From NCBI GenBank assembly GCA_965226875.1, contig OZ245439.1, positions 3,601,817 to 3,665,816 of the forward strand: a DNA stretch of 64,000 nt, given 5' to 3'. The notes under the pieces are model-generated. The model did no database searches, had not been told where the DNA came from, and saw nothing but the letters and a program-made list of their open reading frames with translations. Position numbers and translations under genes: made by a program. Positions 43,762-59,301 of the stretch are shown piece by piece (positions within the stretch are counted from its first letter, which is position 1; each line of letters begins with the position of its first letter). This stretch comes from Dehalococcoidia bacterium. GTDB taxonomy: Bacteria; Chloroflexota; Dehalococcoidia; Lucifugimonadales; UBA3495.

Positions 43762-46017
43762 TTATCGGGCAGAGGCAGCGACGCCGGAACGCTCGCGGTA
43801 TACGGAGATACAGCCCCGGATGCCCTCCAGCTTGGAGAACAGCTTGCCCAACTGCTCCATGCCGGTGGTGTGGACCGTGAGGGTCATGCTTACCTTGCCG
43901 TCCTCGTATCCCCCGGTGTTTACCGAGGCGATGTTCACTCCCTCTTCGGACACGTTCCGGGTCAAGTCGTTCAGCAGGCCGACGCGGTCGTAGGCGAGCA
44001 TGGTGATGCGAACCGGGTATAGGTTCTTTGTCTTGCCCCAGTCCACGGGAATGAACCGCTCCGGTTCGTCTTCCTGCTTGACGTTGGGACAGTCGCGCTT
44101 GTGCACCGTCACTCCCCGGGAGCGGGTGACGAAGCCGGTGATTTCGTCGCCGGGAATAGGATTGCAGCACGGGCCCATCCGGGTGAGCATATCGCCCACG
44201 CCCTGCACCGTGACGCCCGAAGTGGGGCTGGACAGGGGCAGGCCAGTACGCTTCTCGGCCAACGAAGGTTCCGGTTCCTGGCGGGCCTCGGCCAGCTTCT
44301 GGGCCAACTGGCTCTGGGAAACGCCACCGGAGCCCAGATTGGCCAGCAGGTCTTCGAGGGTGTCGTACTTGAAGAGGGCCAGGATTTCGCTGTCGGGGAA
44401 CTTCTGGTTGAGACGGTGAATTTCCCGGCGAAGTATCTCCCGGCCACGCTGGATGTTCACGCCGAGCTCCTGGCGGCGGAACCACAGGCGGATGCTCTGG
44501 CGGGCGTTGGCGGAACGGACGTAGCCGCGGTTGGGGTTGAGCCAGTCGAGGCTGGGGCCGCGGTCGGACTTGGTGTTCATGATTTCCACGGTGTCGCCGT
44601 TCTGCAACGTCGTGTCCAGCGACACCAGCTTGCCGTTGACCTTGGCCCCGACGCAACGGTGGCCCAACTCGGTGTGTATCTTATAGGCGAAGTCCACCGG
44701 CGTGGAGCCGGCGGTGAGTTCGACGATGCGTCCCTTGGGGGTGTAGACAAATACCTGGTCTCGGAAAATGTCCTGCTGGACTTTTTCGATAAACTCGGCT
44801 GTGCTGGTTACGTCTCGCTGCCACTCCAACAACTGCCGAAGCCCGCTCATCTTCTCTTCAAAGTTCCTGTCGCTGGAACTGCCTTCCTTGTAGCGCCAGT
44901 GAGCCGCCACGCCGTACTCGGCGGTCTCGTGGAATTCGTAGGTCTTTATCTGCACTTCCAGGTGATTGCCGCTGTCGCAGAGAACCGTGCTGTGCAGGGC
45001 CTGGTACATATTCTCTTTGGGGTTGGCGATGTAGTCATCGAACAGGCGGGGGATGGGATGCCATAGCTGATGAATCGCTCCCAGCGCCCGGTAGCAGTCG
45101 GCCTGCCCCTCCACCAGCACGCGCAGGGCAAAGAGGTCATATATGTCGCTCAGTTGCTTGCCATCGGCTTCGTACTTCTGAATCTTGCGATAGGTGCTGT
45201 ATATGTTCTTGGGGCGGCCCGACACTTCGGCCTTTATGTCCTCCGCCTCCAGCTTCTCCCGCAACTGTTCCGATACCTGGGCGACATACTCCTCCCGTTC
45301 CACCCGCCGCGCGGCCAGCATCCGGGAGATTTCGCGGTACTTGTCGATGTCCAGGTGACGCAAGGCCAGGTCGTCCAGTTGCCACTTGATTTCCCAGATG
45401 CCCAGGCGGTGGGCCAGCGGGGAATAAATGTCGAGGGTCTCCTGGGCGATGCGGCGCTGCTTCTCCGGCGGGAGGGCGTCCAGCGTCTTCATGTTGTGCA
45501 GCCGGTCGGCCAGCTTGATCAGGACGACGCGGATGTCCTCGGCCATGGCCACCAGCATCTTGCGCAGGTTCTCGGCGTAGAGGCTGTCGGGGTCGTCGGC
45601 GCCTTCGGGCATGGCGCTCAGCGGGTCGTGAATGCGGCCGTCCAGCCTGGTCAGCTTGGTGACGCCGTCCACCAGCTTGGCGATTTCCGGCCCGAACTTG
45701 CTGGAAAGCTCGTCCAGTGGCACATCACAGTCTTCCACCACGTCGTGAAGCAGCGACGCGGCGATAGTCTGCTCGTCCAGGCGAAGGTCGGAGAGGTAGA
45801 GGGCGATTTCCAGAGGATGGGCGATGTAGGGTTCGCCGGACTTCCGCAACTGTCCTTCGTGACAGCGTTCGGCGAAGTGATATGCGTCCCTGATGAGGTT
45901 GGTGGCATTCTCCGGCAGGTAGTCCGACACCTGCTCCAGAAGTCGGTCAATTACTTCCTCAGTCGCTACCCCAAGGCCGATACCCCCGTGTGTTGAATTC
46001 AACCGAAGGCTCGTCAC
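43762..46017 (-). CDS. rel: bifunctional (p)ppGpp synthetase/hydrolase (RelA/SpoT homologue)
   Basis: 751 aa. HD hydrolase motifs (AHPLEIALYL, LLHDVVED), synthetase domain (RPKNIYSTYRKI...DLFALRVLV), then TGS and ACT regions. Confidence 0.93.
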   Translation of the reverse strand: MTSLRLNSTHGGIGLGVATEEVIDRLLEQVSDYLPENATNLIRDAYHFAERCHEGQLRKSGEPYIAHPLEIALYLSDLRLDEQTIAASLLHDVVEDCDVPLDELSSKFGPEIAKLVDGVTKLTRLDGRIHDPLSAMPEGADDPDSLYAENLRKMLVAMAEDIRVVLIKLADRLHNMKTLDALPPEKQRRIAQETLDIYSPLAHRLGIWEIKWQLDDLALRHLDIDKYREISRMLAARRVEREEYVAQVSEQLREKLEAEDIKAEVSGRPKNIYSTYRKIQKYEADGKQLSDIYDLFALRVLVEGQADCYRALGAIHQLWHPIPRLFDDYIANPKENMYQALHSTVLCDSGNHLEVQIKTYEFHETAEYGVAAHWRYKEGSSSDRNFEEKMSGLRQLLEWQRDVTSTAEFIEKVQQDIFRDQVFVYTPKGRIVELTAGSTPVDFAYKIHTELGHRCVGAKVNGKLVSLDTTLQNGDTVEIMNTKSDRGPSLDWLNPNRGYVRSANARQSIRLWFRRQELGVNIQRGREILRREIHRLNQKFPDSEILALFKYDTLEDLLANLGSGGVSQSQLAQKLAEARQEPEPSLAEKRTGLPLSSPTSGVTVQGVGDMLTRMGPCCNPIPGDEITGFVTRSRGVTVHKRDCPNVKQEDEPERFIPVDWGKTKNLYPVRITMLAYDRVGLLNDLTRNVSEEGVNIASVNTGGYEDGKVSMTLTVHTTGMEQLGKLFSKLEGIRGCISVYRERSGVAASAR

Positions 46018-46194: not shown

Positions 46195-46848
46195 ATGGAG
46201 GAAAGAATTGAAAATCTAGGGTCCAGGTTGGTGAAGGCCTTCGAACAAGTGCCGGACCCCCGCAGTCCTTTGGGAAGACGCCATAGCTTGCCCGCGATTC
46301 TAACCCTGGCGGTCTGTGCCATGCTGGCCAACTGCCACAGCCTCTACGCCATTCACCAATGGGGCCGGGAGCATGGCGATTTGGCTCCCAGGCTGGGTTT
46401 CAAAGGGAGCAAGACCCCGGCGGTATCCACTTTGCATCTGGTCTTCAAACGGTTGGACCGGGAGGCTTTCGAGACGGCGCTCCAGGAGTGGGCCCAGGAG
46501 GAATTGGGCGACCGGGCGCAGGCGGTGGCCATTGACGGGAAAAGTCTGCGGGGCATTCATGGCGAGGAACTGCCTGGGGTGCATCTGGTGGCGCTATATG
46601 GGCAGCAACTGGGCCTGACCCTGGCTCAAAAGGGGGGTAGGGGAGAAGGAAGCGGAGTTGAGCGTGGCGCCGGAACTGTTGGGCCAGGTTGATCTGGCCG
46701 GTTGGGTGGTAACTGGGGACGCCCTGTATGCCCAGAAGAACCTGAGTCGGCAGGTGGTGGAGCAAGGCGGTGACTATTTCTGGGTGGTGAAGGATAACCA
46801 GCCTACCCTGCGGGCCGATATTGCCCTGCTGTTTGCCGAACCACCCTA
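46195..46848 (+). pseudogene. ISAs1-family (H-repeat-associated) transposase remnant: frameshifted and 3'-truncated
   Basis: FEQVPDPRSPLGRRHSLPAILTLAVCAML...AIDGKSLRG...LVALYGQQLGLTLAQKG. The frame changes in the A4G6 run at about 46628. It continues ...APELLGQVDLAGWVVTGDALYAQKNLSRQVVEQGGDYFWVVKDNQPTL and ends at the IS5-family insertion. Confidence 0.75.
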
Positions 46849-47704
46849 GGGGGTGTCGTCAAAGTAATTTAGTCCAAATCGCCATGGCCCGAATCTGGCA
46901 GATGGCCAGGTAAGAAAGGGAGTTCTTGGCATACCGGGTCGCCACTCCCCGCCACTGCTTGAACTCCAGGAAACCGTTCTCCACCAAATGCCGCAACTTG
47001 TACAGCGCCCGGTCGTAGTCCCGCTTTTCCTTCCGGTTGCTCTTGGGCGGTATCACCGGATTCATCCCCCGGGCCGAGGCCCCGGCCACGATTTCATTGG
47101 TGTCATAGGCTTTGTCCGCCAGCAGGTGTTCCGCCTTGATGCCCTCAATCAGGGGCAGCGCTTGGGAGCAGTCAGCCACAGTGCCTGCGGTCACCGCCAG
47201 CCTTACCGGCATTCCGTGGGAGTCCACCGCCAGGTGCAGCTTGCTGTTGAGCCCCCTTTTGTGCGGGCAATGGCTTGGTTGCCGCCCCGGGCCCCGGCGC
47301 TGTGGGGATGGGCCTTGATGTAGCTGGCGTCAATCATCAGCCATTCATAATCAGGGTCATCCATCACCGCCTCCAGCAGCCCGGCCCAGACGTTCCGGTC
47401 CCGCCAGCGGCAGAAGCGGCGGTGGGTGTTCTTCCAGTCCCCGTAGTCCGGGGGCAGATCCCGCCAGGGGGCGCCGGTGCGCAAAATCCAGAACACAGCG
47501 TTGATGAAACGGCGGTTATCTTGGGCCGGCCGGCCTGTCTTGCCCTTGCCGCCGGGGAGAAGGGGTTCCAAGATTTCCCATACCCGGTCTGAAATATCGT
47601 GGCGCCGGTGCGCCGGGGCTACGGCTACTGCTGGCATTGCCCAATCCTGCTGTACTAATTGCAATATCAGCTTATTATCACACTCTCACTTTGACGACAC
47701 CCCC
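46849..47704 (-). mobile_element. IS5-family insertion sequence (IS427-like, orfA/orfB with -1 frameshift), 856 bp, TA duplication
   Basis: 17-bp perfect terminal inverted repeats GGGGGTGTCGTCAAAGT (46849-46865 and reverse at 47688-47704). TA occurs at 46847-48 and 47705-06. Confidence 0.88.
46859..47664 (-). CDS. IS5-family transposase (two frames joined by a probable programmed -1 frameshift at AAAAGGGGG near 47220)
   Basis: orfA reads ...RFINAVFWILRTGAPWRDLPPDYGDWKNTHRRFCRW. orfB reads KGGLNSKLHLAVDSHGMPVRLAVTAGTVADCSQA...LLADKAYD...YKLRHLVENGFLEFKQWRGVATRY. Confidence 0.85.
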
Positions 47705-48248: not shown

Positions 48249-49232
48249 CTACCTTCGCCAAATCCCCAGCGTGATAACCCGCCGTACCCAGCGCAGCCGT
48301 TCCAGTCTAGCCCGCTTACGCCGGATTCCAGCCAGTTCCCGATGCCGCCAGCCCAGTTGCGTGTTGCGGTCCAGGCCCTTCAGAGGCGCGGTCTCCCGGG
48401 GGAGGGTCAGGCCGTGCTCATCCAGCATGGCCACCTCCAGCTCCGGAATCCGCTGGCGCGCTGACACCCAGGCCAGGCCCCGGCCAGTGGGTGGATGCGA
48501 GTCCCACAGCGTGCGCCACTCCTTAATCAGCAGATACGCGGCTCCGTAGACCTCCTCGTCGTAATCACCCGGCTCCCGCGCCACCACGTCGTTATGACGC
48601 CGCTGAGACCTCGGCCTGGCCGCCCTGGCACCGCCGGGCGCATTAGCGCCGACCCGCACAGATTCCAGCCGTTCCACCCGCCGCTCCAGCCGGCGCAGGC
48701 CAGCGGCGAGTTCATCCCGCAGAGCCTCGACCGCCTCGCTATCCAAGCCGCCATTGCCAGCGCCCGTCCCCGCCAGCACCCGCTGCAACTGCCCCTCCAG
48801 CTCCGCCACCCGCTCCTCCAGCGCCCTGACCCGCTCCCTGTCCTGCCCGGACACCTCCACTGCCCGCTCCAACAGCATCCGCTCCAAAGCCCCGGCCAGG
48901 CGCGGCGACAACTCGCCCGCTCCCTGGCTGCGCCACAGGGTCTTGCGGTCCACGCCCAGCTCCTCCGCCGCCTTCACCGGCCCCAAGTCGTGCACCAGGT
49001 CGTTCAGCAACGCCCGCAGTCGCAACCCCCGCAGGCTCTCCAGGCTGGCGGTGCCATCCCCGGACTGTCCACACCGCTGCATCCGTACCACCTCCACTCT
49101 CGCGTTCCAAGAGGAACATTTCCTGTAGGGGGCTGGAACATCGCATCGCCCGCCGCCGCTTGCCACGCGAACCATTCCGTAGCTGGCCGTTGCCATTGGC
49201 CGTGGAACCAGCTCTTCCCTGAAGGTGTTCAC
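48249..49232 (-). CDS. hypothetical protein with HTH-like segment and long Arg/Glu-rich coiled coil
   Basis: GPVKAAEELGVDRKTLWR (HTH-like), then ERVRALEERVAELEGQLQ...LRRLERRVERLES. The start is uncertain (ATG 49232 or 49082). Confidence 0.45.
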   Translation of the reverse strand: MNTFREELVPRPMATASYGMVRVASGGGRCDVPAPYRKCSSWNARVEVVRMQRCGQSGDGTASLESLRGLRLRALLNDLVHDLGPVKAAEELGVDRKTLWRSQGAGELSPRLAGALERMLLERAVEVSGQDRERVRALEERVAELEGQLQRVLAGTGAGNGGLDSEAVEALRDELAAGLRRLERRVERLESVRVGANAPGGARAARPRSQRRHNDVVAREPGDYDEEVYGAAYLLIKEWRTLWDSHPPTGRGLAWVSARQRIPELEVAMLDEHGLTLPRETAPLKGLDRNTQLGWRHRELAGIRRKRARLERLRWVRRVITLGIWRR

Positions 49233-49363
49233 TGATTCGGCCCTTGTCCCCCTCGATTCCCCCGCTTCCAGCTACGGACACGACCGGCTCTGCCCCCTGG
49301 CCCCAAAGTCGAATCCCTGTACACGTCTATGACACCACGTCGGGGCCGTCCTGCGTCAGGTCT

Positions 49364-49395
49364 TATGGGGTGGTTCATGCGTGAACCACCCCATA
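49364..49395. repeat. perfect palindrome TATGGGGTGGTTCA-TGCG-TGAACCACCCCATA (partner at 63372-63407)
   Basis: 14-bp arms read directly. Lies about 80 bp upstream of the first gene of the transfer cluster (49476). Confidence 0.95.
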
Positions 49396-49475
49396 GGGGG
49401 TTCCGACAACCGGCAGTCCGCCTCCACACTTGTTAGCGAACATTAGTTCGTTAAGACAAGCGAAAGGAGGCAACG

Positions 49476-50108
49476 ATGTTCCTGCGGTTCATCCCCACTT
49501 CCGGCAGGGCCAGGCGGCTGATGCTGTTGGCGGCGGCCCCGCTGCTGGCGGCCCTGCCCGCCGTCCGCGCCGCCGCCCCCGCACTGGCCCAGACTCCCCC
49601 AGACCGGCCTCCCGTCTTTGTCAACGAGGACCAGCAGGTCGTCGAGCGCAAGGTCGACGGCCGCTTCATCGCCCGGCCCGTCTTCAGCCGCCCGGTGGAC
49701 GTCCTCTTCTACGCCGTCCGCCACCCCGACAGCGGCGACTGGCTCACCGCCACCTACCGCGCCCAGGGCGGCGAGAACCGGCTCTCCGACGGCTGGGAGT
49801 ACACCATCGAGTACCCCGCCCTGGACGAGTACCCCGCCCTGGACGAGCAGCCCGCCCTGGACCCCGACCAGTCCTACCTGCTGGCACTGCTGGTCAAGAA
49901 CCCCAACGGCGGCGACCCCTACGCCTTCTACGCCCTGATCCCGGAGCACCAGTCCAACAAGCTCTGGGACAAGGTGCTGCAGTCCCTGGAGCCGGACCGC
50001 TGGGGCCGGGCCCTGGCCCGCTGGGCCATCGAGGGCGTCCACGGCACGCTCTGCGGAGTGGTGGAACGGGCCATCGGTGAAGACTCCGCCAACTGCCGGG
50101 AGGGTTAG
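49476..50108 (+). CDS. secreted hypothetical protein (first gene of the transfer cluster)
   Basis: AGGAGG 6 nt upstream. Signal-peptide-like N-terminus RARRLMLLAAAPLLAALPAVRAAAPALAQ. Internal 18-bp x3 repeat (YPALDE YPALDE QPALDP) at 49812-49865. Confidence 0.65.
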   Translation: MFLRFIPTSGRARRLMLLAAAPLLAALPAVRAAAPALAQTPPDRPPVFVNEDQQVVERKVDGRFIARPVFSRPVDVLFYAVRHPDSGDWLTATYRAQGGENRLSDGWEYTIEYPALDEYPALDEQPALDPDQSYLLALLVKNPNGGDPYAFYALIPEHQSNKLWDKVLQSLEPDRWGRALARWAIEGVHGTLCGVVERAIGEDSANCREG

Positions 50109-50113
50109 CGGCT

Positions 50114-51076
50114 ATGGGCGACATCTTCACCGGCACCCCTCCGGGACTCACCTACGAACACGAAATTGTGAAGGCGGCGTGGACCGTGGTCTGGGCCGTT
50201 GCCTCGGGCGCACTGGTGGTGATCCTGGGCTGGATGGGCCTCAGCTTCATCGTCCAGGAGCACCTGGGACATCACCAGTCGGGCTGGCGGGAGATGGTGC
50301 CCCGTCTGGTGCTGGGCTTGGCCGCCGCCGCGTCGTCCCTCTGGTGGTGCGCCCTGGTCATCGACGTGGCCGACGCCGTATCCGGCTTCGTCGCCTCCTC
50401 CCTGGGGGTTACCGCCGGGAACCTGCTGCGGGCGTCGCTCACGACCCTGCTGAAGGCGGCGGCCTCGGGCAGCGTGGGCCTGGTGCTGCTACTGGCCCTG
50501 ATCTACCTGGTCTACGGCTTCTTCGTCATCTACCTGCTGGTGCAGATGGTCCTGCGCCTGGCCCTGATCGACATCCTGCTGGCCCTGGCGCCGGTGGCAT
50601 TGGGGCTGTGGATCCTGCCCCACACGGCGGGCTGGGGACGGCACTGGCTCCGGATGTTCATGACCACGGTGTTCCAGCAGGCGGTGCAGCTCATCGCCCT
50701 GGCCCTCGGCTTCGGGTTCCTGCACGACATGGCGCCCATCTCCCCCTTCGAGCCGGCCCAGGACCTGGTCTGGAAGCTGCTGATGTCCCTGGCCTTCGTC
50801 TACCTGGCCACCCGGGTGCCCTCAATGCTGGGCAACCACGGCACCTTCGACGCTTGGCTACACACCCTCTACTTCGGCATGTCCCTGCCCGGGACCGTGC
50901 TGCGCTCCGGCCAGGCCCTGGCCATGCTGGCCGGTGGTGTGGCCGGCGGCGCCGGGGCGGCCGCGGCGGCGGCCACCAGCGCGACCAGCGCCGCTGTCAA
51001 CGCCGCCAGCTCGGCGGCGCAGACGGGTACGCCCCCGGCCCAGTCCGGGCCTACCCCCAGGAGCTTCGGGCCATAG
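50114..51076 (+). CDS. polytopic membrane protein, VirB6/TrbL-like candidate
   Basis: 320 aa, about 6-7 TM helices and an Ala/Ser-rich tail. The position upstream of pilin-like and VirB4 genes matches VirB6-type channel subunits. The assignment is by topology and context only. Confidence 0.5.
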   Translation: MGDIFTGTPPGLTYEHEIVKAAWTVVWAVASGALVVILGWMGLSFIVQEHLGHHQSGWREMVPRLVLGLAAAASSLWWCALVIDVADAVSGFVASSLGVTAGNLLRASLTTLLKAAASGSVGLVLLLALIYLVYGFFVIYLLVQMVLRLALIDILLALAPVALGLWILPHTAGWGRHWLRMFMTTVFQQAVQLIALALGFGFLHDMAPISPFEPAQDLVWKLLMSLAFVYLATRVPSMLGNHGTFDAWLHTLYFGMSLPGTVLRSGQALAMLAGGVAGGAGAAAAAATSATSAAVNAASSAAQTGTPPAQSGPTPRSFGP

Positions 51077-51191
51077 ACGGAAACGAAAGACATCCCACGC
51101 GGAAAGGAGGCGCGGCGATGTGCCAGTAGAAACGTGGGACTCACCCGAAACGGCAACCAGCAATCTTTCGACATTGTAAGGAGAGAAAGGA

Positions 51192-51479
51192 ATGGCAGAC
51201 CTGACGCAGACCATATCCAACCTGGTGTCCATCCTGCTGGGACTGGTGGGCGTCGTGGGCGTGGGCTACTTCATCTACGGCGCCTACCTATACCTTACCG
51301 CCTCCGGCGCCCCCAACCAGATGGAGCGGGGCAAGAGCGCGATGATGACCGCCCTGGCGGGCATCGTGCTGGCACTGGTGGCCTTCGGCGTGGTGGAACT
51401 GGTGATGAACGCAGTCGTGGGTTCCCCGGTGGACGTGGACTTGCCCAAGCCCACCCCGGCTCCCGATAAGGTCAGCTAG
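51192..51479 (+). CDS. VirB2/TrbC-like pilin candidate
   Basis: 95 aa with two hydrophobic helices separated by a short loop (LVSILLGLVGVVGVGYFIYGAYLYL - TASGAPNQMERGKSAMMT - ALAGIVLALVAFGVVELV). AAGGAG upstream. Confidence 0.55.
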   Translation: MADLTQTISNLVSILLGLVGVVGVGYFIYGAYLYLTASGAPNQMERGKSAMMTALAGIVLALVAFGVVELVMNAVVGSPVDVDLPKPTPAPDKVS

Positions 51480-51489
51480 GAGAGACGAA

Positions 51490-53202
51490 GTGAGAGAGCA
51501 TGAAGTCCCGACCCACGTGCAGGCTGAGGACAAGGTGCTGCTGTGGTTCACCTTCCCCCAGATCGTGGCGGTCTTGGCGGTGTGCGCCGTGTCCTACGGC
51601 GCCTACCGCTACGCCCCCTTCGGTCCCTCCGAAGTGCGGCTGGCACTGGCTGCCCTCCTGGGCATGGTGGGCATCGCAATGATAGTGGGCAAGGTCGGCG
51701 GACGGGGGCTGCCCTTGGTGGTCGCCGACCTGCTCAAGTACCGGCTGGGAGCCAGGCGCTACGCCGGGTCCCCGGCGGAACTGGCCCGCCCTGAGGCCCC
51801 CGCGCCCGATGCGGCGCAGGGCAGGCCCAATCCGCTCCTGCTGCTGGCGCAGCGCATCGGAAAAAGGCTGTCCGGCCTGCGCAAGTCCTGGCGTCGCCGT
51901 CGAGGACGTCGTCCCTTCCGGCCCCACGGCTGGTTCGGCAAGCGCCGCAACCGCCGGGACGGCGACGGCGGCAATCCCGGCAAACCCAAGGAGACCAGGA
52001 ACAAGAAGCCCTGGCGTCTCTCGCTGGCTCTCGCGGCCCTGGCCCTGACGGCCCTGCTCGTACCTCACGCCGCCTTGGCCGACGGCCCCTGGTCCGAGGA
52101 CGCCTGGCGGCTGGACGAGGTCCGGGCCCTGCCGCCCGACCCGGTGCCGGGGCGCGGGCTCTTCGTGGAAGACCTGGCGGTGATCGCCCGAACCGCCTGG
52201 ATCACCATCCGGGCGGCCACCGACCTGAAGCTGGACGCCCGGGCCTACGGCGGCGGCGAGGGGCGCACCCTGACCTTTTTCGTGGCAGACCACATGCAGC
52301 AGGGAGAGGCCGAGATATTCGGTTTCTCCCTGGACGGTCCCAACCCGTCCTTCATTTTCGCCTGGCAGGACGGGCTGGGACAGACCGGGGCGCTGGCCCT
52401 CAAGGGACGGCAACTCCCACACCCCCTGCCTATGGTGGAAGGCGAGGTTTGCAGTCTCAAGGCGGATACCCTGGGCTGGACGCTGGGGGCCATCAGCGGC
52501 GTAGTCGTATCGGAGTGCGCGTCGCAACTGGAGGAGCGGGTGAGCCTGCCGGTGTCCGGCGGGCACCATCGGCAGTCGATGGACGCCATGTTGACCGGAG
52601 CGGTCACCGGCGTAACCGGCACCGTCAGCGTAAGCGCGGGCGGCGCCCGTACCAGCGTCCCCTTCGTCCCCGGCGGCGTAACCAGCTTCCATCTGCCGAT
52701 AGCCTTGGGTGAGGCCGTCCACGACGTCACCATCGAGGCCGCGCTGGAGGCTTCGCTACAGGTGGCTCAGCCCCCGCTGGTGCAACTGACCCATCGCCCC
52801 CAAAGGACGGAGCAGCGCACCGAGACGGTCAGCCTGCTGCGCCCCGGCACCAGCCGCTACGTCAGCCGCACCGTGTCGGTGGCCTTGCCCCCCGATGGCA
52901 GGGTGGTCCAGTACACCATCGGCGCCACCGTCTCCATTCCCAGCGAGACGGTCCAGAAGGACGTCACCCTGGAAATCGACCACCCAGAGCACGTCCGCGC
53001 CGAGGTGGTGCAGCGCGGCCCCCTGGCCCGCAGCCGGAAGGAAACTGTCGTCCTCGATACCACCCTGGCGTCTGACGCATCCTACACGCCCCTGGTCCTG
53101 CCCCAACCCACGCCGGCGCCGCCCACCGCGGAGCACCGGCCCCTGAACGATGACGAGGCGACCGACCTGTTCCAGCGGCCCGGCTGGTGGGAGTGGCCCT
53201 GA
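51490..53202 (+). CDS. PrgI/VirB3-like N-terminal domain fused to a large extracytoplasmic domain
   Basis: The N-terminus VPTHVQAEDKVLLWFTFPQIVAVLAVCAVSYGAY matches the PrgI-family pattern (charged lead, then 2 TM). An Arg-rich linker, a third TM and about 370 aa of unassigned domain follow. GTG start with AGGAG upstream. Confidence 0.55.
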   Translation: MREHEVPTHVQAEDKVLLWFTFPQIVAVLAVCAVSYGAYRYAPFGPSEVRLALAALLGMVGIAMIVGKVGGRGLPLVVADLLKYRLGARRYAGSPAELARPEAPAPDAAQGRPNPLLLLAQRIGKRLSGLRKSWRRRRGRRPFRPHGWFGKRRNRRDGDGGNPGKPKETRNKKPWRLSLALAALALTALLVPHAALADGPWSEDAWRLDEVRALPPDPVPGRGLFVEDLAVIARTAWITIRAATDLKLDARAYGGGEGRTLTFFVADHMQQGEAEIFGFSLDGPNPSFIFAWQDGLGQTGALALKGRQLPHPLPMVEGEVCSLKADTLGWTLGAISGVVVSECASQLEERVSLPVSGGHHRQSMDAMLTGAVTGVTGTVSVSAGGARTSVPFVPGGVTSFHLPIALGEAVHDVTIEAALEASLQVAQPPLVQLTHRPQRTEQRTETVSLLRPGTSRYVSRTVSVALPPDGRVVQYTIGATVSIPSETVQKDVTLEIDHPEHVRAEVVQRGPLARSRKETVVLDTTLASDASYTPLVLPQPTPAPPTAEHRPLNDDEATDLFQRPGWWEWP

Positions 53203-53519
53203 TGCGCCACACCGTTATCTTCCCGCTCCTCGCCGCCGCCCTCCTGGCCTCCGTGGCCGCCGCGCCCGAGGAGGAGTGGGCCGCGATGATCGCCGCTTTT
53301 GACGACGTGCTGACCGGCATGGCCGCCGTCGCCGCCGGGCTGTGCTTCTTCGCCATCGTCTGGGCCGGGTTCGTGCTGATGGCCGAGGGAGCGGAGGGTG
53401 AGGGGCGACGGGGCAAGGCCCGAAATGCCGTGCTGATGGCCGTGGTCGGCCTGGTGGTGGTGCTGTCGGCCAAGGCCATCGCCCTGCTGCTGCTCAGCGG
53501 CATCGTCGGCGTCCCTTAG
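53202..53519 (+). CDS. second VirB2/TrbC-like small membrane protein
   Basis: Signal-like MRHTVIFPLLAAALLASVAAA, then two TM helices around EGAEGEGRRGKARN. The ATG overlaps the upstream TGA (an alternative GTG is at 53187). Confidence 0.5.
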   Translation: MRHTVIFPLLAAALLASVAAAPEEEWAAMIAAFDDVLTGMAAVAAGLCFFAIVWAGFVLMAEGAEGEGRRGKARNAVLMAVVGLVVVLSAKAIALLLLSGIVGVP

Positions 53520-54378
53520 AGCCTGTTTACAATCTCTTCAGGATTAGCACCGCGAAGGCGAGAACCACCATTTGCAGACTGGTATTGAGCTTTCTCTCGC
53601 AGTTCTTCCAGAGGCGGCGGCACTTCTCCAGCCAGCCGAAAGACCGCTCCACCACCCATCGTTTCGGCAGCACCACGAAAGTGTGCAGTTCGTTGCGTTT
53701 CACCACTTCCACCGAGGCTCCCAGCAGGCTCTGCACCGCCGTGGCAAAGGGTTTCCCGGTGTATCCCCCATCCACCAGCACATTCTGCACCTGGCTCAGG
53801 TTGGCCCGGCGCCGGTCAAACATAGCCAAAGCCCCAGCACGGTCGGTAACGTTGGCGGTGGTCACGTGAATCGCATGGGGCAACCCCTGAGTGTCCACGG
53901 CGATGTGGCGCTTGATTCCAGACACCTTCTTGCCCGAGTCATAGCCCTTGTTCTCGGCGCTGTCGGTGTTCTTGACGCTCTGGGAGTCCACGATACAGAA
54001 GCTGGTCCGTTCTTTCCGACCATTGCTTCGCCGGGCCGCGTCAACCGATTTTTTTTAAGACCTGCTCCAGAATGGAATACTTCGCCGGGTCGGGTCGCTC
54101 GCTCCATTGCCGGAAATACTTGTAGCAGGTGCGCCAATCCGGGAAGTCCGCAGGCAGCATCCGCCACTGGCACCCGCTTTTCAGGAGATAGAGCACCCCG
54201 CAGAAAACGTCGTACAGGTCCACGGTGCGGGGCTTAGTCCGGCGGCGGGCCGACTCCAAACAGGGAAGAATCCGGGCAAATTGTTCCCGGCTGATGTCGC
54301 TGGAATAGGAATGAGACATGATTACCCCCTCTGGTAACAGCCTCAACTTAACATATTGCAAAGATCGTAGACAGGCTC
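53519..54378 (-). mobile_element. IS5-family insertion sequence (860 bp) with TTA target duplication, inserted between the pilin-like gene and virB4
   Basis: Ends are GAGCCTGTTTACAATCTCTTC (53519) and reverse GAGCCTGTCTACGATCTTTGC (54378). TTA occurs at 53516-18 and 54379-81. Confidence 0.88.
53527..54319 (-). CDS. IS5-family transposase (orfA/orfB, probable -1 frameshift on an A8 run at 54049-54056)
   Basis: orfA reads MSHSYSSDISREQFARILPCLESARRRTKPRTVDLYDVFCGVLYLLKSGCQWRMLP...LEQVLKK. orfB reads KSVDAARRSNGRKERTSFCIVDSQSVKNTDSAENKGYDSGKKVSGIKRHIAVDTQGLP...VDGGYTG...RWVVERSFGWLEKCRRL. Confidence 0.85.
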
Positions 54379-54413
54379 TTAGACAGAACCAATCACAGGA
54401 GGAGACCAAACTG

Positions 54414-56651
54414 ATGAAAGCGACCCTTGAGAAAGTGAAGGGACTGGCCTTCCCGTTGAGGCGGGCCAGCAACTGGGAACCCGGCGAAGCCATACCTGAA
54501 CCGGCTCCGGTCAAGCCGCCGGCGCCGCTGCCCCTGTTCTTCATGCTGTCCCACCTGGAGGACGACGGGCCGGTGCGCTTGGACGGGGTGAAGCTGGCGG
54601 TGTGCGAGCTGATGGGCCTGGAACTGGACGACGCCAGGCTGGGCGCCTTCGCCGGAGCGCTGAACGCCCTGGACTTACCGGTGCAGTTCCTGGTCCGCCA
54701 GCACCCGCCGGTGCTGGGACCCCTGCGCGACCGGCTGGCCGAGGTACAGCCCGACGACCTGCCCCGGCAGACTCGCGAGTCTGCCGACTCTCTGGGCCGG
54801 CTTTTGACCGACCTGGAGACCCGCGAGGGCATCCTGGACCGGCGATTCTACGCGATCTGCGAGCACGCCCGAGCCGACGAGCTGCGTGGCCTGCTGGCCC
54901 GGGCCGGCCTGGGCGTGTTTCCCATCACTGGGATTCCGCTCCGCCTGCTGCTTTTGGCCTCTACCCTGGGCGGCTCGCCGCGGGAGGGGCAAGAGGACGA
55001 TTCCCTTTCTTTGGAAGTCAACCGGCGGGACATACGCATCGGCGGACACCTGACCCGCTCCCTGCATCTGGGCAAGTGGCCGCGCTCGTTGGCCCCCGGA
55101 TTCCTACAGGGACTGATGGCCACCGGCGCGCCCATGGACCTGGCCCTGCACCTGGACGCCATTCCTTCGGACCAGGCCGCCCGCACTCTGGAATGGCAGA
55201 AGGTCCGCTTCGAGTCGGCTCAATCCTTGTCCCTCAACCGGGGCCGCAGCCTGTCCCCCGAGGCGGAGATCGCCCTGGAGGACGTGAGCAGGCTCAGGGA
55301 CGAGGTGCAGCGGGGACGGGAAAGGCTGTTTCACGCCTCCCTGTCGGTGACGTTACACGCTGACAACGCCGATACCCTGAAGGAGCTGACCCAGAAGGCC
55401 CGGGCCCACTTCGCCGCCACCCTGGGCAAGCTGGACACCCTGGCCTTCCGGCAGCGGGAGGGGCTGCTCTCCACTCTGCCCTTGGGCCTGAACGCTCTGG
55501 CGGTGTGGCGCACGCTGGACACGTCGTCGCTGGCCCGGCTCTTCCCCTTCTCGCCGCCCGACCTGGACACCAGGAGCGGCACCCTCTACGGCATAGACCT
55601 CAGGGCCTGCGCCCCGGTGGTCTACGACCCCTTCGACGGCACTCACCTCAACGCCAATACCGCCGTGCTGGCAAGGTCCGGCAGCGGCAAGTCCTTCGCC
55701 ACCAAGCTGGGGGTGCTGCGGGGCGTCTGCCGGGGTGTGCGCGCCTACGTCATCGACCCGGAGGGCGAGTACGCCGACATGGCGAGGGCCGTCGGCGGAC
55801 GGGTGCTGACCCCCGGTGTCCCCGGCCAGGGGATGAACCCCTTCGTCATCGATCGGGGCGACTCGGAGGAACTGCTCCAGCGTATAGGCAGCCTGCGGCG
55901 GCTGATCGAGGTGATGGTCGGGGAGCGCTTGAGCGCCGAGCGGCGGTCGTCTTTGGACCACGCCCTAGCGGGCTACTACGCCGAGGCCAGAGAGCGCACC
56001 GGATTCCGGGATTTCTACGCCTACTTGGAGCAGAGCGGTGACGGCGACATCGCCCACCTGCTGCGGCCCTTCGCCACCGGCAGCCTGCGCCACCTGCTCT
56101 CCGACGGGGGCGACGACCTGCTGACCCATGAGGCGCTGGTGACAGTCTTCGACCTGCACCTGCTGGAGCCGGAGCTGCGCCCCGCCGCCGCGATGGTCTG
56201 CACCGAGACGGTGTGGGCCGCCGCCGCCCAGGACCCCCGGCCCCGCCTGCTGGTGGTGGACGAGGTCTGGAGCATCATGCAGCACCCTGAAGGCGCGGCC
56301 TTTATGGTCTCAATGGCCAAACGCGCCCGCAAGCACCGCCTGGGGTTGCAGTTCATCACCCAAGACGTGCAGGACCTGCTCAGCGAGGACTCGTCCCGCG
56401 CCATCACCGGCCACAGCGGCCGCGCCCTGCTCCAGAACGCCGCCTTCAAGCTGCTGCTCCAGCAGGACGCCGCCGCCATCAGCACCGTCGGCGAGGCCTT
56501 CGACCTGCCGGTGGAACTGCAACGCTGGCTGCTGTCCTGTCCCAGGGGCGACGGGCTGCTCCTGGCGAGAGGCAACCGCTTTCCCATCCGCATCGAGGCC
56601 ACGCCGGAAGAGACCGAGGTCATCGAGTGGCGCCCCGGTCCGAGGCACTGA
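54414..56651 (+). CDS. virB4: VirB4/TraC-type conjugative transfer ATPase
   Basis: 745 aa from ATG 54414 (AGGAGG 9 nt upstream, restored context once the IS is removed). Walker A ARSGSGKSF and Walker B LLVVDEVWSIM. The track ORF start at 54318 lies inside the IS. Confidence 0.8.
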   Translation: MKATLEKVKGLAFPLRRASNWEPGEAIPEPAPVKPPAPLPLFFMLSHLEDDGPVRLDGVKLAVCELMGLELDDARLGAFAGALNALDLPVQFLVRQHPPVLGPLRDRLAEVQPDDLPRQTRESADSLGRLLTDLETREGILDRRFYAICEHARADELRGLLARAGLGVFPITGIPLRLLLLASTLGGSPREGQEDDSLSLEVNRRDIRIGGHLTRSLHLGKWPRSLAPGFLQGLMATGAPMDLALHLDAIPSDQAARTLEWQKVRFESAQSLSLNRGRSLSPEAEIALEDVSRLRDEVQRGRERLFHASLSVTLHADNADTLKELTQKARAHFAATLGKLDTLAFRQREGLLSTLPLGLNALAVWRTLDTSSLARLFPFSPPDLDTRSGTLYGIDLRACAPVVYDPFDGTHLNANTAVLARSGSGKSFATKLGVLRGVCRGVRAYVIDPEGEYADMARAVGGRVLTPGVPGQGMNPFVIDRGDSEELLQRIGSLRRLIEVMVGERLSAERRSSLDHALAGYYAEARERTGFRDFYAYLEQSGDGDIAHLLRPFATGSLRHLLSDGGDDLLTHEALVTVFDLHLLEPELRPAAAMVCTETVWAAAAQDPRPRLLVVDEVWSIMQHPEGAAFMVSMAKRARKHRLGLQFITQDVQDLLSEDSSRAITGHSGRALLQNAAFKLLLQQDAAAISTVGEAFDLPVELQRWLLSCPRGDGLLLARGNRFPIRIEATPEETEVIEWRPGPRH

Positions 56652-56685
56652 ACCGGAACTCCGAATCCATAGAGAGGCAATCACA

Positions 56686-59301
56686 ATGAGTAGCAACGTC
56701 AGGAAAATTCTCTTCGGTGAGAAGCAGGCCAAGAACCCTCCGGCGCTCTTGGCGGTTACGCCCCACCGCACCGGTGAGCGCACCCTGCTGGGCGTGGAGA
56801 ACCTGCTACAGTCCGTCGCGGTCCCCGAACCATTCTCCCTGGAACTGGCCGGGGACATGGACGGCGTCACCCTCATGGCCCGCTGCCAGGATGACCGGGT
56901 GGTCAGGCAGCAAATCGCCGCCCACTACCCCCAGGCCCGTATCCGGGAGGTGGCCCCCGGCGACGACCCCATGCGCCGCCGCCAGGGCGAGCTGGCCTGG
57001 GGCCTTAACCTGCGGGCCGAGGGGCCGGAGTACGTGCCCCTGCGCACTTTCCGGGACGACGACCTGCTGGACCCCGGCTCCGACCCACTGTTGGCCGTCA
57101 TCGGCTCCCTGTCCTCCCTGCGCCCCGGCGAGCGCATCGTGTCCCGGCTGCTGCTGCGCTCCCTGGGACCCGAGTGGTCCCAGTCCCACCAGGCCAAGGC
57201 CCACAAGCGGGCCGTCCCCGAACCCCGCGACCCGTCCTACACCTACCACACCCGGCCCCTCCAGGTGGACGGGGTGACGATGGCGGTGCTGGGCGCCGGG
57301 GCGCTGGCCGCCCTGCGGGGCTACCTGTGGGTCTAGGACGGGGAGATACTTAAGGCGTCGCTGCTGGGGGTTGGCACCGCCTCCGGCCTGGCGGTGGCCG
57401 GTTGGGGCTGGTGGCGCTGGAAGCAGGCCCGCAACCGGGTCTACGACCCGCTTCTGATACGGGAGAAGGTCTCCCGCATCGCCTTCGACGCCGAAATCCA
57501 GCTCACCGCCTTCCTGCCCGCCGAGGCCGGCACCGAGCGGGCCTGCGACCTGCTGGAGGGGGTGGCCGCCGCCTACCGCCATTACGACCACCCCGCCGGG
57601 GCCAGGTTAAAGGCCAGCAAGATACGGCCCCTGTTTCCTGCGGCCAGCCTCCACCCCGCCGGGCCGGGCCTGTTCGGCGCGCGCAGCGTCCTGGGCGTGC
57701 GCGAGGCGGCCACCCTGTGGCACCCGCCCGGCGAAAGCGATGAAACACCCCAAGTGGAGCGCTCCGGCTCCAGGACGCTGGCGCCACCGGCGCGGGGCGT
57801 GCGGACTGGCGCCCCGGTGGGCGACTCCACCGGCGGCGTGCCCCGCGAGGTCAACTTCTCCGCCGACCTGCTCAAGCGCCACCACCTCTACGTCGCCCGC
57901 ACCCGCATGGGCAAGTCCACCCTGATGCACCACGTCGTCGCCCACAAGCTCCGGGAGAAGGCGGCGGGCCGGGACAATGACGCCATCATTGTGGTGGACC
58001 CCCACGCCGACCTGGTCGCCGGGCTGCTGGAGCAGGTGCCGGAGTCCGTCATTGACCGGGTGAAGCTCATAGACCTGGCCGACAACGCCGGGGCGCCGGG
58101 CATCAACCTGCTGGACACCCGCATCTTCGCCGACCGGGACCGCACCGCCGACTCGGTGGTGCGGGTGGCGAAAGGGCTTTGGGACCAGTGGGGGCCGAGG
58201 ATGCAGTCCATCCTGGAACACACCGTCAAGACCCTGCACGAGGCCAACGAGAGCATGGACGAAGACGGCCAGTACACCATCCTGGACGGGCTGAAGCTGC
58301 TTTCCGACGGGAAGTTTCGCGCCGAGACGCTGGCAAAGCTATCCGATCCTTACCTGCTGGAGTGGTGGACCCGGGATTTCGATAACTGGCACCGCCAGTA
58401 CCGCTCCGAGGCCATCGCCCCGGTGCAGACCCGGCTGGCCTACTACGCTTCCTCCAAGCTCGACTTTACGCAAAATCCAGGAAAAGTAATGGATGACATC
58501 ACCTTTGTGCGTAGCCACTGGTGGTTGGTGTCGGAGGGTTTTTCACTATCGACCGCCAACTCCGATGTACAGAAACTCCCCGCCACTCTGTACCATCGTA
58601 TTGCAGATTCCCTCGCTTATGCCGCTTAAAATGCGTAAAGTCCAGCCAAGAAGGCCAGGGCCATCCTGGGACAGCCCCGCTCCACCATCGACCTGCGGGA
58701 GACCATCCTGGACGGCGGCGTTCTGCTGGTCTCCACCGCCCAGGGAACGGCGGGTAGGGACGTGGCCGCCCTGGTGGGAGCCTCCCTGCTCAACCTGGTG
58801 GACTCGGTGATCCGGGAGCAGGAGAGCCTGCCCCTGCACCGGAGGCGTGGGGCGCTGGTCGTTGTCGACGAGATGCAGTCCATGCCCGGCGTCGACTACG
58901 AGTCCATGTTGTCAGAGTTGGGCAAGTACGGCGCCAGCTTCGTCCTGGCCACCCAGAGCCTAGCCAAACTGGACGACCTCTCCCGCACCATGCAGGACAC
59001 CATCCTGGCCAACGTGGGCTGCCTGGCCGTGTTCCAGGTGGCGGGCACCGACGCCCGCCGCCTGGTCTGGGAACTGGGTAAGGACCGCGTTACCGAAGAC
59101 GACATCACCTCTCTGCCCGTCCATCACTGCTACGTGCGGGCCACCGTGGGCACCGACCGGATGCCCGCTTACTCGATGATGGTGCGCAAGCCCGAGCCGG
59201 GGGATCCTGAAATTGCCGCCCGGGTCCGTGCCCAGGCCCAGGGATACACCACCAGGGCCGGGGAGATCGCCGTCGCCAACGGCAAGACTAATTGTCGTTG
59301 A
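56686..59301 (+). pseudogene. type IV coupling protein (VirD4/TraG/TraD-like ATPase) carrying three lesions
   Basis: One reading frame runs throughout. An in-frame TAG at 57334-57336 falls between two TM helices (...ALRGYLWV*DGEILKASLLGVGTASGLAVAGWGWW). Walker A RTRMGKST, IIVVDPHADL, then a 187-bp MITE at 58459-58645. The frame resumes KARAILGQPRST...LVVVDEMQSMPG...FVLATQS. The last 11 codons come from an IS21 end remnant. Confidence 0.8.
58459..58645. mobile_element. 187-bp MITE with 14-bp terminal inverted repeats and 5-bp duplication CCAAG
   Basis: Left TIR CTCGACTTTACGCA at 58459-58472; right TIR TGCGTAAAGTCCAG at 58632-58645 (13/14 match). CCAAG occurs at 58454-58 and 58646-50. Removing 192 nt restores the coupling-protein frame. 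Confidence 0.8.

Follow-up and report, generated by a model that had tools for sequence, protein, structure and literature searches.

Two paralogous stem-loops head a small control cassette before the transfer and excision operons of a decayed Chloroflexota integrative conjugative element

The window, that is the whole stretch of 64,000 nucleotides of Dehalococcoidia DNA that was analysed, carries a decayed integrative conjugative element (ICE). Its content, as assigned with Pfam, comprises a type IV secretion system (T4SS) operon, a MOB_C (Replic_Relax) relaxase, small HTH regulators and a large serine recombinase. Two palindromes, called copy 1 and copy 2 in the following, lie among these genes, which are arranged as listed below.

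48249–49082, minus strand: o48249, encoding a protein of 277 aa whose N-terminal XRE/cII-like HTH is followed by a long coiled coil and a helical C-terminal domain
49364–49395, plus strand: copy 1, a perfect 14+4+14 palindrome
49476–61086, plus strand: transfer operon with t1, a TrbL-like gene, pilins, VirB4, coupling protein and relaxase
54318–56651, plus strand: VirB4 gene, part of the transfer operon
56686–59301, plus strand: coupling protein gene, with in-frame stops
59470–61086, plus strand: MOB_C/Replic_Relax relaxase gene, in the transfer operon
61912–62281, minus strand: HTH gene, one of four encoding small HTH proteins
62352–62381, plus strand: near-consensus promoter TTGACA-18-TACAAT, preceding the HTH81-p107-HTH88 genes
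62437–62682, plus strand: HTH81 gene, first of the small-gene trio
62669–62992, plus strand: p107 gene, second of the trio
62997–63263, plus strand: HTH88 gene, third of the trio
63372–63407, plus strand: copy 2, a perfect 16+4+16 palindrome
63507–63686, plus strand: small ORF overlapping the start of the serine recombinase gene
63655 onwards, plus strand: serine recombinase gene, incomplete because the window ends at 64000

Copy 1 is thus flanked by the divergent HTH/coiled-coil gene on one side and by the first gene of the T4SS operon on the other. Copy 2 comes 109 nt behind the HTH88 stop codon, HTH88 being the last gene of the small HTH-type trio on the plus strand, and the small ORF and the serine recombinase lie beyond it. 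The claim of the sequence-only reading that the element encodes at least four small HTH proteins was borne out by the minus-strand gene and the trio listed above. The relaxase matches PF13814 over residues 292–485 (E = 1e-8), a family that equals MOB_C (PMC5357655). Gene o48249 reads divergently from the T4SS operon, and tblastn placed it beside copy 1 in all relatives whose flanking sequence is long enough. An NCBIfam search with its product gave no match, and its AlphaFold2 model (mean pLDDT 69), when compared with the PDB by Foldseek, retrieved only generic XRE/cII-like HTH proteins and no functional lead.

Both palindromes were found exactly as the sequence-only reading had given them, copy 1 being TATGGGGTGGTTCA-TGCG-TGAACCACCCCATA and copy 2 being CTCATAGGGTGGTTCA-AGCG-TGAACCACCCTATGAG; when T.G pairs are allowed, the stems extend to 49361–49398 and 63369–63410, respectively. 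The distances of about 80 bp, 100 bp and 14 kb that accompanied them were measured as 80 nt from the end of copy 1 to the ATG at 49476, 99 nt from the end of copy 2 to the ATG at 63507, and 14,010 nt between the copies. The core GGGTGGTTCA-N4-TGAACCACCC is indeed restricted to these two sites in the window, even with up to three mismatches allowed (2 observed versus 0.02 expected, and at least two matches in 0 of 100 shuffles), and the two copies rank first and second by length among its perfect short-loop palindromes. The repeat common to both, family D18, extends over 42 nt, includes non-palindromic flanks (TCT... ...GGG.TT) and has the same orientation in both places. Folded as single-stranded DNA, the copies reach −16 and −18 kcal/mol, and single-strand folding of both against shuffled sequence yields z values of −6 to −8.5.

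A scan for the core in 185,579 species genomes matched 10 loci. All five matches in Dehalococcoidia, one on each of five MAG contigs, lie in one of the two contexts seen in the window (four copy-1-like and one copy-2-like). The remaining five (Actinomyces, a deltaproteobacterium and Bacteroidota) were rejected as unrelated hairpins sharing the core by chance, the clearest of them being L004, which has a T run. A covariance model of the stem-loop, applied to 465 kb of related elements, detected no copy beyond these two positions. The proposed association with both operons therefore holds for all five Dehalococcoidia core matches and for every match of the covariance model. The motif does not behave as a dispersed genome-wide REP element, since the 64 kb hold two copies instead of many scattered intergenic ones and the model adds none. 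A stem-loop occupies the copy-1 position in every relative examined (15 related elements), with several hairpins in tandem in L012 and L013. Homologues of copy 2 are known in L008, L049 and L043–L048, and the majority of relatives have copy 1 alone. VirB4 relatives at 77–91% identity form more than 120 clusters, 1383 proteins being found at E ≤ 1e-20, and the ICE family appears widespread in Chloroflexota and Dehalococcoidia assemblies. A literature search for the family found no paper describing it.

The sequence blocks that surround the two copies are as follows.

49104–49141, no strand assigned: GTTCC-N4-GGAACAT and GGAACAT repeats, upstream of copy 1
49204–49229, plus strand: GGAAC-N18-GTT, ECF-sigma-promoter-like, directed at copy 1 and conserved in most clades
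49317–49338, plus strand: CTGTACAC-N4-ATGACACCAC, the most conserved block of the region, with none upstream of copy 2
49425–49430, plus strand: CACACT block, 25–26 nt past the stem-loop in 15 of 15 relatives and present also after copy 2 in L008, L049 and L043
49430–49435, plus strand: weak −35-like TTGTTA, assigned by inspection and absent from the promoter-scan output
49437–49450, plus strand: GAAC-N4-GTTC dyad CGAACATTAGTTCG of LexA (Cheo-box) type, a candidate operator
49452–49457, plus strand: weak −10-like TAAGAC, likewise assigned by inspection and absent from the promoter-scan output
63423–63427, plus strand: CTCCA, a degenerate CACAC block after copy 2
63447–63458, plus strand: degenerate dyad AGACAATTGTTC, the copy-2 counterpart, with one half-site intact

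The geometry around copy 1 is fixed in the relatives and runs CTGTACA, 44 nt, a stem-loop of 36–38 nt, 25–26 nt and CACAC; the distance from the start of CTGTACA to the stem-loop was found in 15 of 15 relatives. The dyad CGAAC-N4-GTTCG lies 42 nt downstream of copy 1, has the size of an operator (14 bp) and sits between the weak −35-like and −10-like hexamers. GAAC-N4-GTTC is the LexA (Cheo-type) SOS box of Firmicutes and Actinobacteria, with variants in Chloroflexi (PMC4951493). The dyad of the window is a perfect match to it at the place expected in a promoter region and is kept in all copy-1 regions of the window clade and after copy 2 in L008, L049 and L043. The likeness belongs to this neighbouring dyad and does not extend to the palindrome, and it is likely that the small dyad, not the large palindrome, is the better operator candidate. 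Other clades of the family have different dyads at this place, and given these an ICE-encoded repressor would be an equally good candidate as LexA for its binding. The GTTCC/GGAACAT repeats are also replaced in other clades, by TTGCA-N4-TGCAA, GTGCAATC, TGTCC or GGTCCACAATCCCCA at the same place, and the class of repeat co-varies with the recognition-helix region of o48249. The segment at 49204–49229 we take to be a putative ECF promoter from its likeness to the SigE/SigH/SigR-type consensus. The only other exact CGAAC-N4-GTTCG of the window, at 9704, lies within long overlapping ORFs and was read as a chance match. A small ORF running from the ATG of ATGACAYCAC through the hairpin was also considered and was rejected on inspection, its length and frame not being conserved.

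In L008, L049 and L043, copy 2 is still followed by CACACT at 26 nt and by the GAAC-N4-GTTC dyad, and the left-hand block and the upstream repeats are absent, so that the portion shared by the two copies is the promoter-proximal part. The stem-loop was evidently duplicated together with CACACT and the dyad in the copy-2 lineage, and the two palindromes are genuine paralogues, each the leading stem-loop of a small control cassette before the transfer or the excision operon. Copy 2 occurs only in the lineage with the extra HTH paralogue HTH88, and duplication of p107 into HTH88 may have accompanied that of the cassette before the recombinase operon. In a second element (L042/L049), both copies have an identical upper stem. 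The suggestion that a shared operator couples transfer and excision thus survives in one of its parts: a shared cassette that would couple them is well supported, because both operons begin with it (in relatives with the same CACACT and dyad after copy 2), and the palindrome as the operator is the part that is not favoured. Shared regulator boxes before int, xis and tra operons are familiar from the SetCD boxes of SXT/R391 and the KorA/KorB operators of IncP-1. There too the operons for transfer and for excision or maintenance are preceded by one common cis motif and respond jointly to a single signal. Those boxes, however, are short, sequence-conserved duplex sites with many copies and a known protein reader, whereas here a stem-loop of 32–42 nt drifts by compensatory change and occurs once or twice per element; the part that resembles them is the small dyad, not the palindrome. 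The control region of the family is hereby pinned down as a structure-constrained stem-loop, invariant blocks spaced at fixed distances, repeats that differ by clade and a dyad like an SOS box, which offers concrete sites for testing element induction (perhaps by the SOS response) and a possible start of transfer, and one lineage appears to have tied excision to transfer by copying the promoter-proximal cassette. Its importance is limited in that hairpins, operators and oriT repeats are all familiar in ICE control regions and that the copy in the window sits in an already decaying element.

Comparison of the stems between clades demonstrated that the inner arms can be wholly different and yet that the changes are always compensatory, both sides being altered in 14 of 19 pairs of the upper stem. 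A covariation score as high as that observed was reached in 0 of 500 shuffles, 85% of the cells in the stem alignment are paired as against 36–52% with the partner slid, and RNAalifold returns the same helix. The 4-nt loop is distinct in each of the seven window-clade copies, in which the stems are alike apart from compensatory changes. It appears from these comparisons that the stem-loop behaves as a conserved structure rather than as a simple protein-binding word. Pairs of the T.G type outnumber A.C pairs on the sense strand (17 versus 7 cells, or about 16 versus 8 when counted by eye as lineage events with copy 2 included), an excess that leans to the sense strand, is weak and is not significant once clades are collapsed. 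In 4 of about 11 lineages by our count, as against about 8% expected, the central bases of the palindrome are self-complementary as well; such a centre would be without meaning for an RNA loop and counts against an RNA reading.

The explanation that we tentatively prefer is that the stem-loops are a structure-dependent element acting at the level of transcription beside a repressible promoter. The palindromes would form the 5' element of a directional control cassette of about 90 nt, in paralogous copies and in the order stem-loop, 25–26 nt of free sequence, CACAC(T), GAAC-N4-GTTC dyad, weak −10 and ribosome-binding site. This cassette would head the T4SS operon across a large Chloroflexota ICE family with MOB_C relaxase and serine recombinase. 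The LexA-type dyad would serve as the sequence-specific operator, for host LexA or an ICE repressor, and the large palindrome would be selected for self-complementarity, forming a stem-loop in single-stranded nucleic acid, most likely the RNA of the sense strand. Such a stem-loop would stop or process transcripts arriving from upstream, so that each operon would fire from its own repressible promoter only. At copy 2 the transcripts would come from the strongly promoted HTH81-p107-HTH88 operon, since a transcript started at 62352–62381 would continue into copy 2; at copy 1 they would come from the ECF-like promoter or a leader, a sense transcript that we infer, between divergent genes, from the consensus-like motif alone.

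The position and orientation of copy 1, which are the same in all relatives, are consistent with a barrier of this kind, and the copies have the stable G+C-rich stem-loop of a terminator, with stems of 14–21 bp. Two relatives are terminator-like in that TCTTTT(T) follows the stem-loop (L012 and L014), L014 having in addition a run of A ahead of it, and hairpins free of a U tract stand at gene ends elsewhere in these elements, behind the relaxase gene in L016 and between the two genes of a convergent pair in L017. Against a terminator stands the lack of a U tract at most copies, among the relatives at all but those of L012 and L014, and also at copy 1, where GGGGGTTCCG follows directly on the 3' side; a loose terminator scan of the window passed copy 2 only, with TTACTTTCGT. 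The hosts do use canonical terminators, of the form GACCCGC...GCGGGTCTTTTT, directly upstream of the recombinase in L013, L043 and L049. Moreover, the spacing to CTGTACA (44 nt) and CACAC (25–26 nt), which is invariant even between deeply divergent elements, exceeds what a terminator needs and points to a nucleoprotein or RNA architecture that is fixed. Intrinsic terminators or leader attenuators of conjugation operons are known, among them IRS1 of pCF10 and the Tn916 leader. The stem-loop resembles them in its G+C-rich perfect stem, its variable 4-nt loop and its covariation, in its place between an upstream promoter and the first gene of the operon, and in the U tract of L012 and L014; it differs in that most copies have no U tract, the stems of 14–21 bp are unusually long and the distances between motifs are rigid.

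The main rival, unlikely in our estimate and yet a serious one, holds that the stem-loop is the relaxosome recognition hairpin of the ICE's oriT. On this view the invariant CACAC(T) or CTGTACAC, at a set distance, would be the nick site of the MOB_C relaxase, which would bind to the upstream repeats peculiar to each clade, and copy 2 would amount to a second, partial oriT-like site. A relaxase of that family is present, and an inverted repeat with conserved structure, variable sequence and a fixed distance to invariant blocks is the classic anatomy of an oriT. No other conserved non-coding stretch in the conjugation module is as large as the interval of about 390 nt between o48249 and t1, where DNA identity is 87% as compared with 57–72% for the flanking proteins, and the coupling-protein and relaxase genes overlap in relatives, leaving no intergenic space before the relaxase. 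In pAD1, the nick lies within a large inverted repeat. Its MOB_C prototype TraX binds direct repeats at 70–120 bp from the nick (PMC12857230). In the present family the repeats, which are specific to each clade, are found 65–280 bp upstream of the stem-loop, and the winged-helix region of the relaxase is its least conserved part. The locus thus shares with pAD1 oriT2 the relaxase family (PF13814, Replic_Relax), a prominent inverted repeat and short clade-specific repeats at a distance. It differs in being 10 kb from the relaxase gene, in having a second copy without repeats and in being a candidate site from sequence alone. Elements with two oriTs, such as ICEclc and R6K, are known, and in surveyed species the place of MOB_C oriTs is between the operon for the secretion system and that relaxase gene (bioRxiv 10.64898/2026.01.13.699239), whereas here 10 kb separate the site from the relaxase. 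What was duplicated with copy 2 is the promoter-proximal half with CACACT and the LexA-type dyad, without CTGTACAC...ATGACAYCAC and the repeats, and two oriTs in the same orientation 14 kb apart would invite incomplete transfer or loss of the T4SS module by deletion. The 25 nt that separate the hairpin from CACAC show no sequence conservation, unlike the hairpin-to-nick segment of well-studied oriTs, and the hypervariable loop excludes a nick inside it.

Improbable, although closest to what had originally been proposed, is a duplex operator or upstream activating site at which a dimeric or tetrameric HTH protein of the ICE binds the double-stranded palindrome and co-regulates both promoters, reading the outer half-sites CYTRTAGGG, the inner arms of 7–10 bp, or both. 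Inner arms with a 4-bp spacer match the geometry of an HTH-dimer operator, the sequence of the outer stem (CCTATAGGG-like) is conserved across clades, the fixed spacing to CACAC fits a protein in contact with RNA polymerase, and a hypervariable centre suits a spacer free of protein contacts. Candidate proteins are at hand, as o48249, HTH81 and p107 are encoded by every element and copy 2 co-occurs with the extra p107 paralogue HTH88. The complementarity, however, covers essentially all 14–21 positions per arm, far beyond the contacts of one HTH, and wobble-compatible mismatches are tolerated in the stem. Natural operators are usually imperfect. The sequence of the stem is uncoupled from the recognition helices. 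Stems and their inner arms differ between elements with (near-)identical o48249, HTH81 and p107 helices (L017 versus L040, and L011, L018 and L036 mutually), and they are identical in the window, L042 and L005 although the o48249 helices and the upstream repeats differ. The helices of HTH81 and p107 are near-invariant throughout the family and the arms are variable. Among elements sharing a recognition helix the half-site is thus not conserved, CYTRTAGGG of the outer stem being the only conserved part, and the palindrome is not favoured as an operator of a dimeric HTH protein. A further argument from apparent variation of the half-site spacing (25–28 bp) was dropped when an alignment without gaps gave constant spacing of the outer half-sites, save for a 2-nt loop deletion in one clade.

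Something of a long shot is a hairpin-dependent site, in which an extruded or single-stranded hairpin at a rigid 25–26 nt from CACACT would be the geometry that the ICE machinery reads. Possible readers are RNA polymerase in company with a small universal HTH factor, and the MOB_C relaxase, which is restriction-endonuclease-like. On such a scheme only supercoiled, excised or single-stranded DNA would allow the T4SS and recombinase operons to fire, or nicking to occur. If true, this would be a structure-sensing switch common to both processes, transfer and excision alike, and Chloroflexota ICEs would have their first defined control or oriT architecture.

A longer structured RNA is very doubtful. 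The stem-loop would in that case be the terminal or central helix of a conserved leader or small RNA of 150–240 nt that starts at the ECF-like promoter (49204–49229) and controls the T4SS operon in cis or in trans. The span from 100 nt before CTGTACA to the start codon is 251–272 nt in 16 of 18 elements (L012 is longer through insertions, and the end-point of L013 is unreliable), and the interval from CTGTACA to CACAC is almost free of indels. Conserved blocks that look single-stranded alternate with variable spacers, and the motif GGAAC-N16-18-GTGTT is kept upstream. Yet RNAalifold gave no second helix with strong covariation, and Rfam matched no family, giving one tRNA only for the whole window at gathering scores and noise only for the copy-1 region and the copy-2 region of L049 at permissive E-values. 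The promoter for such an RNA is read from consensus alone, and copy 2, which consists of the stem-loop and the downstream part only, means that a long RNA cannot account for both copies.

Recombination sites, element ends or dispersed REP-like repeats are hardly credible, although the serine recombinase gene adjoins copy 2 and the copies bracket the transfer and regulation block, since conserved ICE genes lie beyond both (o48249, with primase and Rad52-like genes in relatives, on the left and the recombinase on the right), most relatives have the single copy 1, the centre is hypervariable unlike that of att, res or hix sites, and the core is nearly missing from the 185,579 species genomes outside the two contexts. 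The attL and attR sites of serine integrases are hybrid sites, not identical perfect palindromes. The other alternative of the sequence-only reading, module boundaries, applies loosely, in that each copy starts an operon, and not otherwise.

Apart from the stem itself, the block TGACACCAC resembles the right arm TGAACCACC, so that an alternative pairing may be possible. The likeness is not general but belongs to the window clade, with another form of it in L021 and L022.

Re-reading of the window confirmed the sequences and coordinates of the two palindromes, copy 1 (49364-49395) ahead of the T4SS operon and copy 2 (63372-63407) ahead of the recombinase operon. Their shared core, GGGTGGTTCA-N4-TGAACCACCC, was said to be confined to these places, and with up to three mismatches it indeed occurs in the window only at 49368 and 63378 (0.02 occurrences expected). 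The repeated unit measures 42 nt (family D18), includes non-palindromic flanks and has the same orientation at both sites. The copies are the longest perfect short-loop palindromes within the window, and, folded as single strands, both outscore shuffled sequence by 6-8.5 standard deviations.

Pfam assignments place copy 1 between o48249, a divergent HTH/coiled-coil gene (48249-49082, minus strand), and the T4SS operon, whose first gene is t1. Homologues of o48249 begin at the methionine corresponding to 49082, which sets the non-coding stretch that holds copy 1 at 49083-49475. The genes and sites downstream are:

T4SS operon (Pfam): a TrbL-like gene, two pilins, VirB4, coupling protein and a Replic_Relax relaxase (PF13814, which corresponds to MOB_C; PMC5357655)
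3' of the relaxase, minus strand: an ImmR/ImmA-like pair
62352-62381, next along the window: a near-consensus promoter, ahead of the small plus-strand HTH-type genes HTH81, p107 and HTH88
after HTH88: copy 2, then a 59-codon ORF, then the serine recombinase

The sequence-only reading had tied the palindromes to these two operons. When one genome of each species was scanned, the 20 specified core bases were found at 10 loci, and the association holds at all five that are Dehalococcoidia MAGs: in L001, L003, L005 and L007 the palindrome lies between the o48249 and t1 homologues, and in L008 it is flanked by an HTH88 homologue and a serine recombinase. At the remaining five loci, in other phyla, the match is to an unrelated hairpin. 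The family to which the element belongs has many members: VirB4 relatives at 77-91% identity form more than 120 clusters. Further loci were obtained through VirB4 look-ups (L011-L019 and L042), through HTH88 relatives (L043-L049, L049 being the same element as L042) and by scanning metagenomes for CCTGTACA-N5-ATGACAYCAC, a flanking block that is independent of the palindrome; the scan gave 22 loci (source of L021-L041), of which about ten belong to this ICE family. This ICE family of Chloroflexota is widespread yet uncharacterised, and its palindromes are of kinds already familiar among the cis elements of ICEs. In the related element L018, a group II intron reverse transcriptase/maturase (5950-7740) is located inside the T4SS operon.

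The copy-1 region aligns nearly gap-free in 15 elements, the neighbouring proteins of which are only 35-70% identical. Each of the 15 has CTGTACA 44 nt ahead of the stem-loop, which itself spans 36-38 nt, and CACAC 25 nt past it (in the window, 26 nt); the spacers show no sequence conservation. The lower stem, CCTATAGGG-like, is kept with the compensatory variants CTGTAGG/CCTACAG and CTCATAAGGGG/CCCCTTATGAG, and the upper stem is clade-specific (TGGTTCA/TGAACCA, CGGACGC/GCGTCCG, GTGACGC/GCGTCAC, GGCCGCA/TGCGGCC, GCGTCGC/GTGACGC). In the 15-element alignment 85% of the helix cells are paired, as against 36-52% with the partner slid; both sides have changed at 14 of 19 pairs, and none of 500 shuffles reached the observed values. 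The same helix was recovered by RNAalifold. Among the seven window-clade copies the stem is constant save for compensatory changes, and the 4-nt loop is different in each. The hairpin is degenerate in L019 and at a second site in L022, and several hairpins stand in tandem in both L012 and L013. This pattern most likely reflects selection on self-complementarity, and the palindrome would therefore act as a stem-loop.

About 40 nt past the stem-loop, just ahead of the RBS, lies a second dyad, in the window CGAACATTAGTTCG (49437-49450), a perfect CGAAC-N4-GTTCG of the LexA/Cheo type. The GAAC-N4-GTTC LexA motif is known in Firmicutes and Actinobacteria, and variants of it have been reported for Chloroflexi (PMC4951493). 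LexA-type dyads also follow copy 1 in L001, L003, L005, L007 and L042 and copy 2 in L008, L049 and L043; in other clades a different small dyad takes this place. By our reading the dyad is flanked by weak -35-like and -10-like hexamers, which the promoter scan did not report. The arrangement suggests that transfer and excision are SOS-controlled, by host LexA directly or by an ICE repressor of the same specificity.

Copy 2 is present in the window, L008, L049 and L043-L048, and every element with copy 2 also carries HTH88, an extra p107 paralogue. A covariance model of the stem-loops found nothing beyond the known sites in 465 kb, including the recombinase regions of L013 and L017-L019. In L008 and L049, CCACACTGGTTTGGAACGGGTGTTC, 26 nt past copy 2, nearly equals CTCCACACTGGTTTGGCGAACATCGGTTCGC past copy 1; L043 has CCACACT...AGAACAAATGTTCT past copy 2, and the tail in the window is degenerate (CTCCA...AGACAATTGTTC). 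An identical upper stem is kept in both copies of L042/L049, and copy 2 of L043 has diverged (GGGGGTTTCA-TCGA-TGAAGTCCCC, with two T.G pairs). Copy 2 has neither the CTGTACAC...ATGACAYCAC block nor the repeats found upstream of copy 1, so that the copied unit is the stem-loop with the promoter-proximal part. The comparative evidence supports the earlier proposal that transfer and excision are coupled through a control element common to both. L044-L048 represent one chromosomal site, bordered on the right by MFS, SRP54 and Rieske genes, in five samples; it carries remnants of a related ICE reduced to p107-HTH93-copy 2-recombinase beside a Mutator-family transposase fragment. Directly 5' of the serine recombinase gene, several relatives have a conserved structured leader of ~130 nt (...GGCCGTGGCGCCACCTG...CAGGTGATGCGGTG...) that ends in a canonical terminator, GACCCGC...GCGGGTCTTTTT:

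L049, 3890-4010
L043, about 11700-11830
L013, about 17640-17720

This leader has no match in Rfam and may be an attenuator or a small RNA.

For the palindrome, a role at the level of transcription is tentatively favoured because the copied unit is a promoter-proximal cassette. In this view the stem-loop would block or process upstream-derived transcripts, which would reach copy 2 from the strongly promoted HTH operon and copy 1 from an ECF-like promoter or leader, and each operon would then rely on its own dyad-controlled promoter. A GGAAC-N16-18-GTGTT motif, which we take to resemble an ECF promoter, points towards copy 1 in most clades. U tracts after the stem-loop in L012 and L014 count for this role, as do the hairpins without a U tract that close other transcription units in these elements and the 17 T.G against 7 A.C cells on the sense strand, a weak bias. 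However, most copies have no U tract though canonical terminators lie nearby, 4 of about 11 lineages have a self-complementary centre, and a simple terminator leaves the rigid spacing unexplained.

The inverted repeat of an oriT is a possible but rather unlikely identity. Copy 1 has the classic anatomy of an oriT, and an inverted repeat is also a feature of the MOB_C prototype; copy 2 fits this identity poorly. In that prototype the binding repeats stand at a distance (PMC12857230).

The dimeric HTH operator preferred in the sequence-only reading is now doubtful, and the big palindrome is probably not a plain operator; such a mechanism better fits the neighbouring LexA-type dyad. Complementarity is retained at nearly all of the 14-21 positions per arm, arms are unlike despite the same HTH helices (L017 vs L040; L011, L018, L036), and they are identical between elements with different o48249 helices. 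Clade-specific repeats (GGAACAT, TTGCA-N4-TGCAA, GTGCAATC, TGTCC, GGTCCACAATCCCCA) occupy equivalent positions upstream of copy 1 (49104-49141 in the window), and their class changes in step with the terminal part of the recognition helix of o48249 (window, L001, L003 and L007 vs L042 vs L005); these repeats, not the palindrome, are therefore assigned to o48249. The helices of HTH81 and p107 are nearly constant in all clades.

That the stem-loop is part of a longer structured RNA appears improbable; RNAalifold found no further helix with strong covariation in the copy-1 region alignment. A recombination site, an alternative raised earlier, is highly improbable, and so is a REP. The palindrome is not a dispersed repeat, an element end or an att site: ICE genes extend beyond both copies, a single copy is the rule in most elements, and the central bases are hypervariable. 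REP-like palindromes of the ATTCCCGC-TTTC-GCGGGAAT type (13641-13668, 19248-19309, 35806-35873) form a small family scattered in the non-ICE part of the window and unrelated to copies 1 and 2.

The conjugative element in the window is decaying, a point-mutated pseudo-ICE. Its coupling-protein gene (56686-59301), a single reading frame 80% identical to an intact 857-aa homologue, contains in-frame stops (TAG 57334, TAA 58627, TAA 58636), as does the ImmA-like gene (61490-61918), with a TAG at position 61637. The left arm, at 46195-47664 between relA/spoT (43762-46017) and the ICE, is replaced by IS5-family and ISAs1-family transposase fragments; in L017, L019 and L042 this arm holds primase and Rad52-like genes. 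The ImmA-like Peptidase_M78 proteins of the window (61490-61918) and L042 (20508-20936) read HALGH where the metalloprotease HExxH is expected, and both are missing the catalytic Glu. An inverted repeat of 2380 nt, 100% identical (23837-26216 and 35918-38297), flanks ~9.7 kb and is probably two IS copies in a composite-transposon-like unit. A 43-48-nt copy of its terminal sequence (85-91% identical) occurs at 59266-59313 and coincides with a shift in frame at the 3' end of the gene for the coupling protein. At 3301-3685, a unit of 54 nt is repeated in tandem about six to seven times, with mutual identity of up to 96%.
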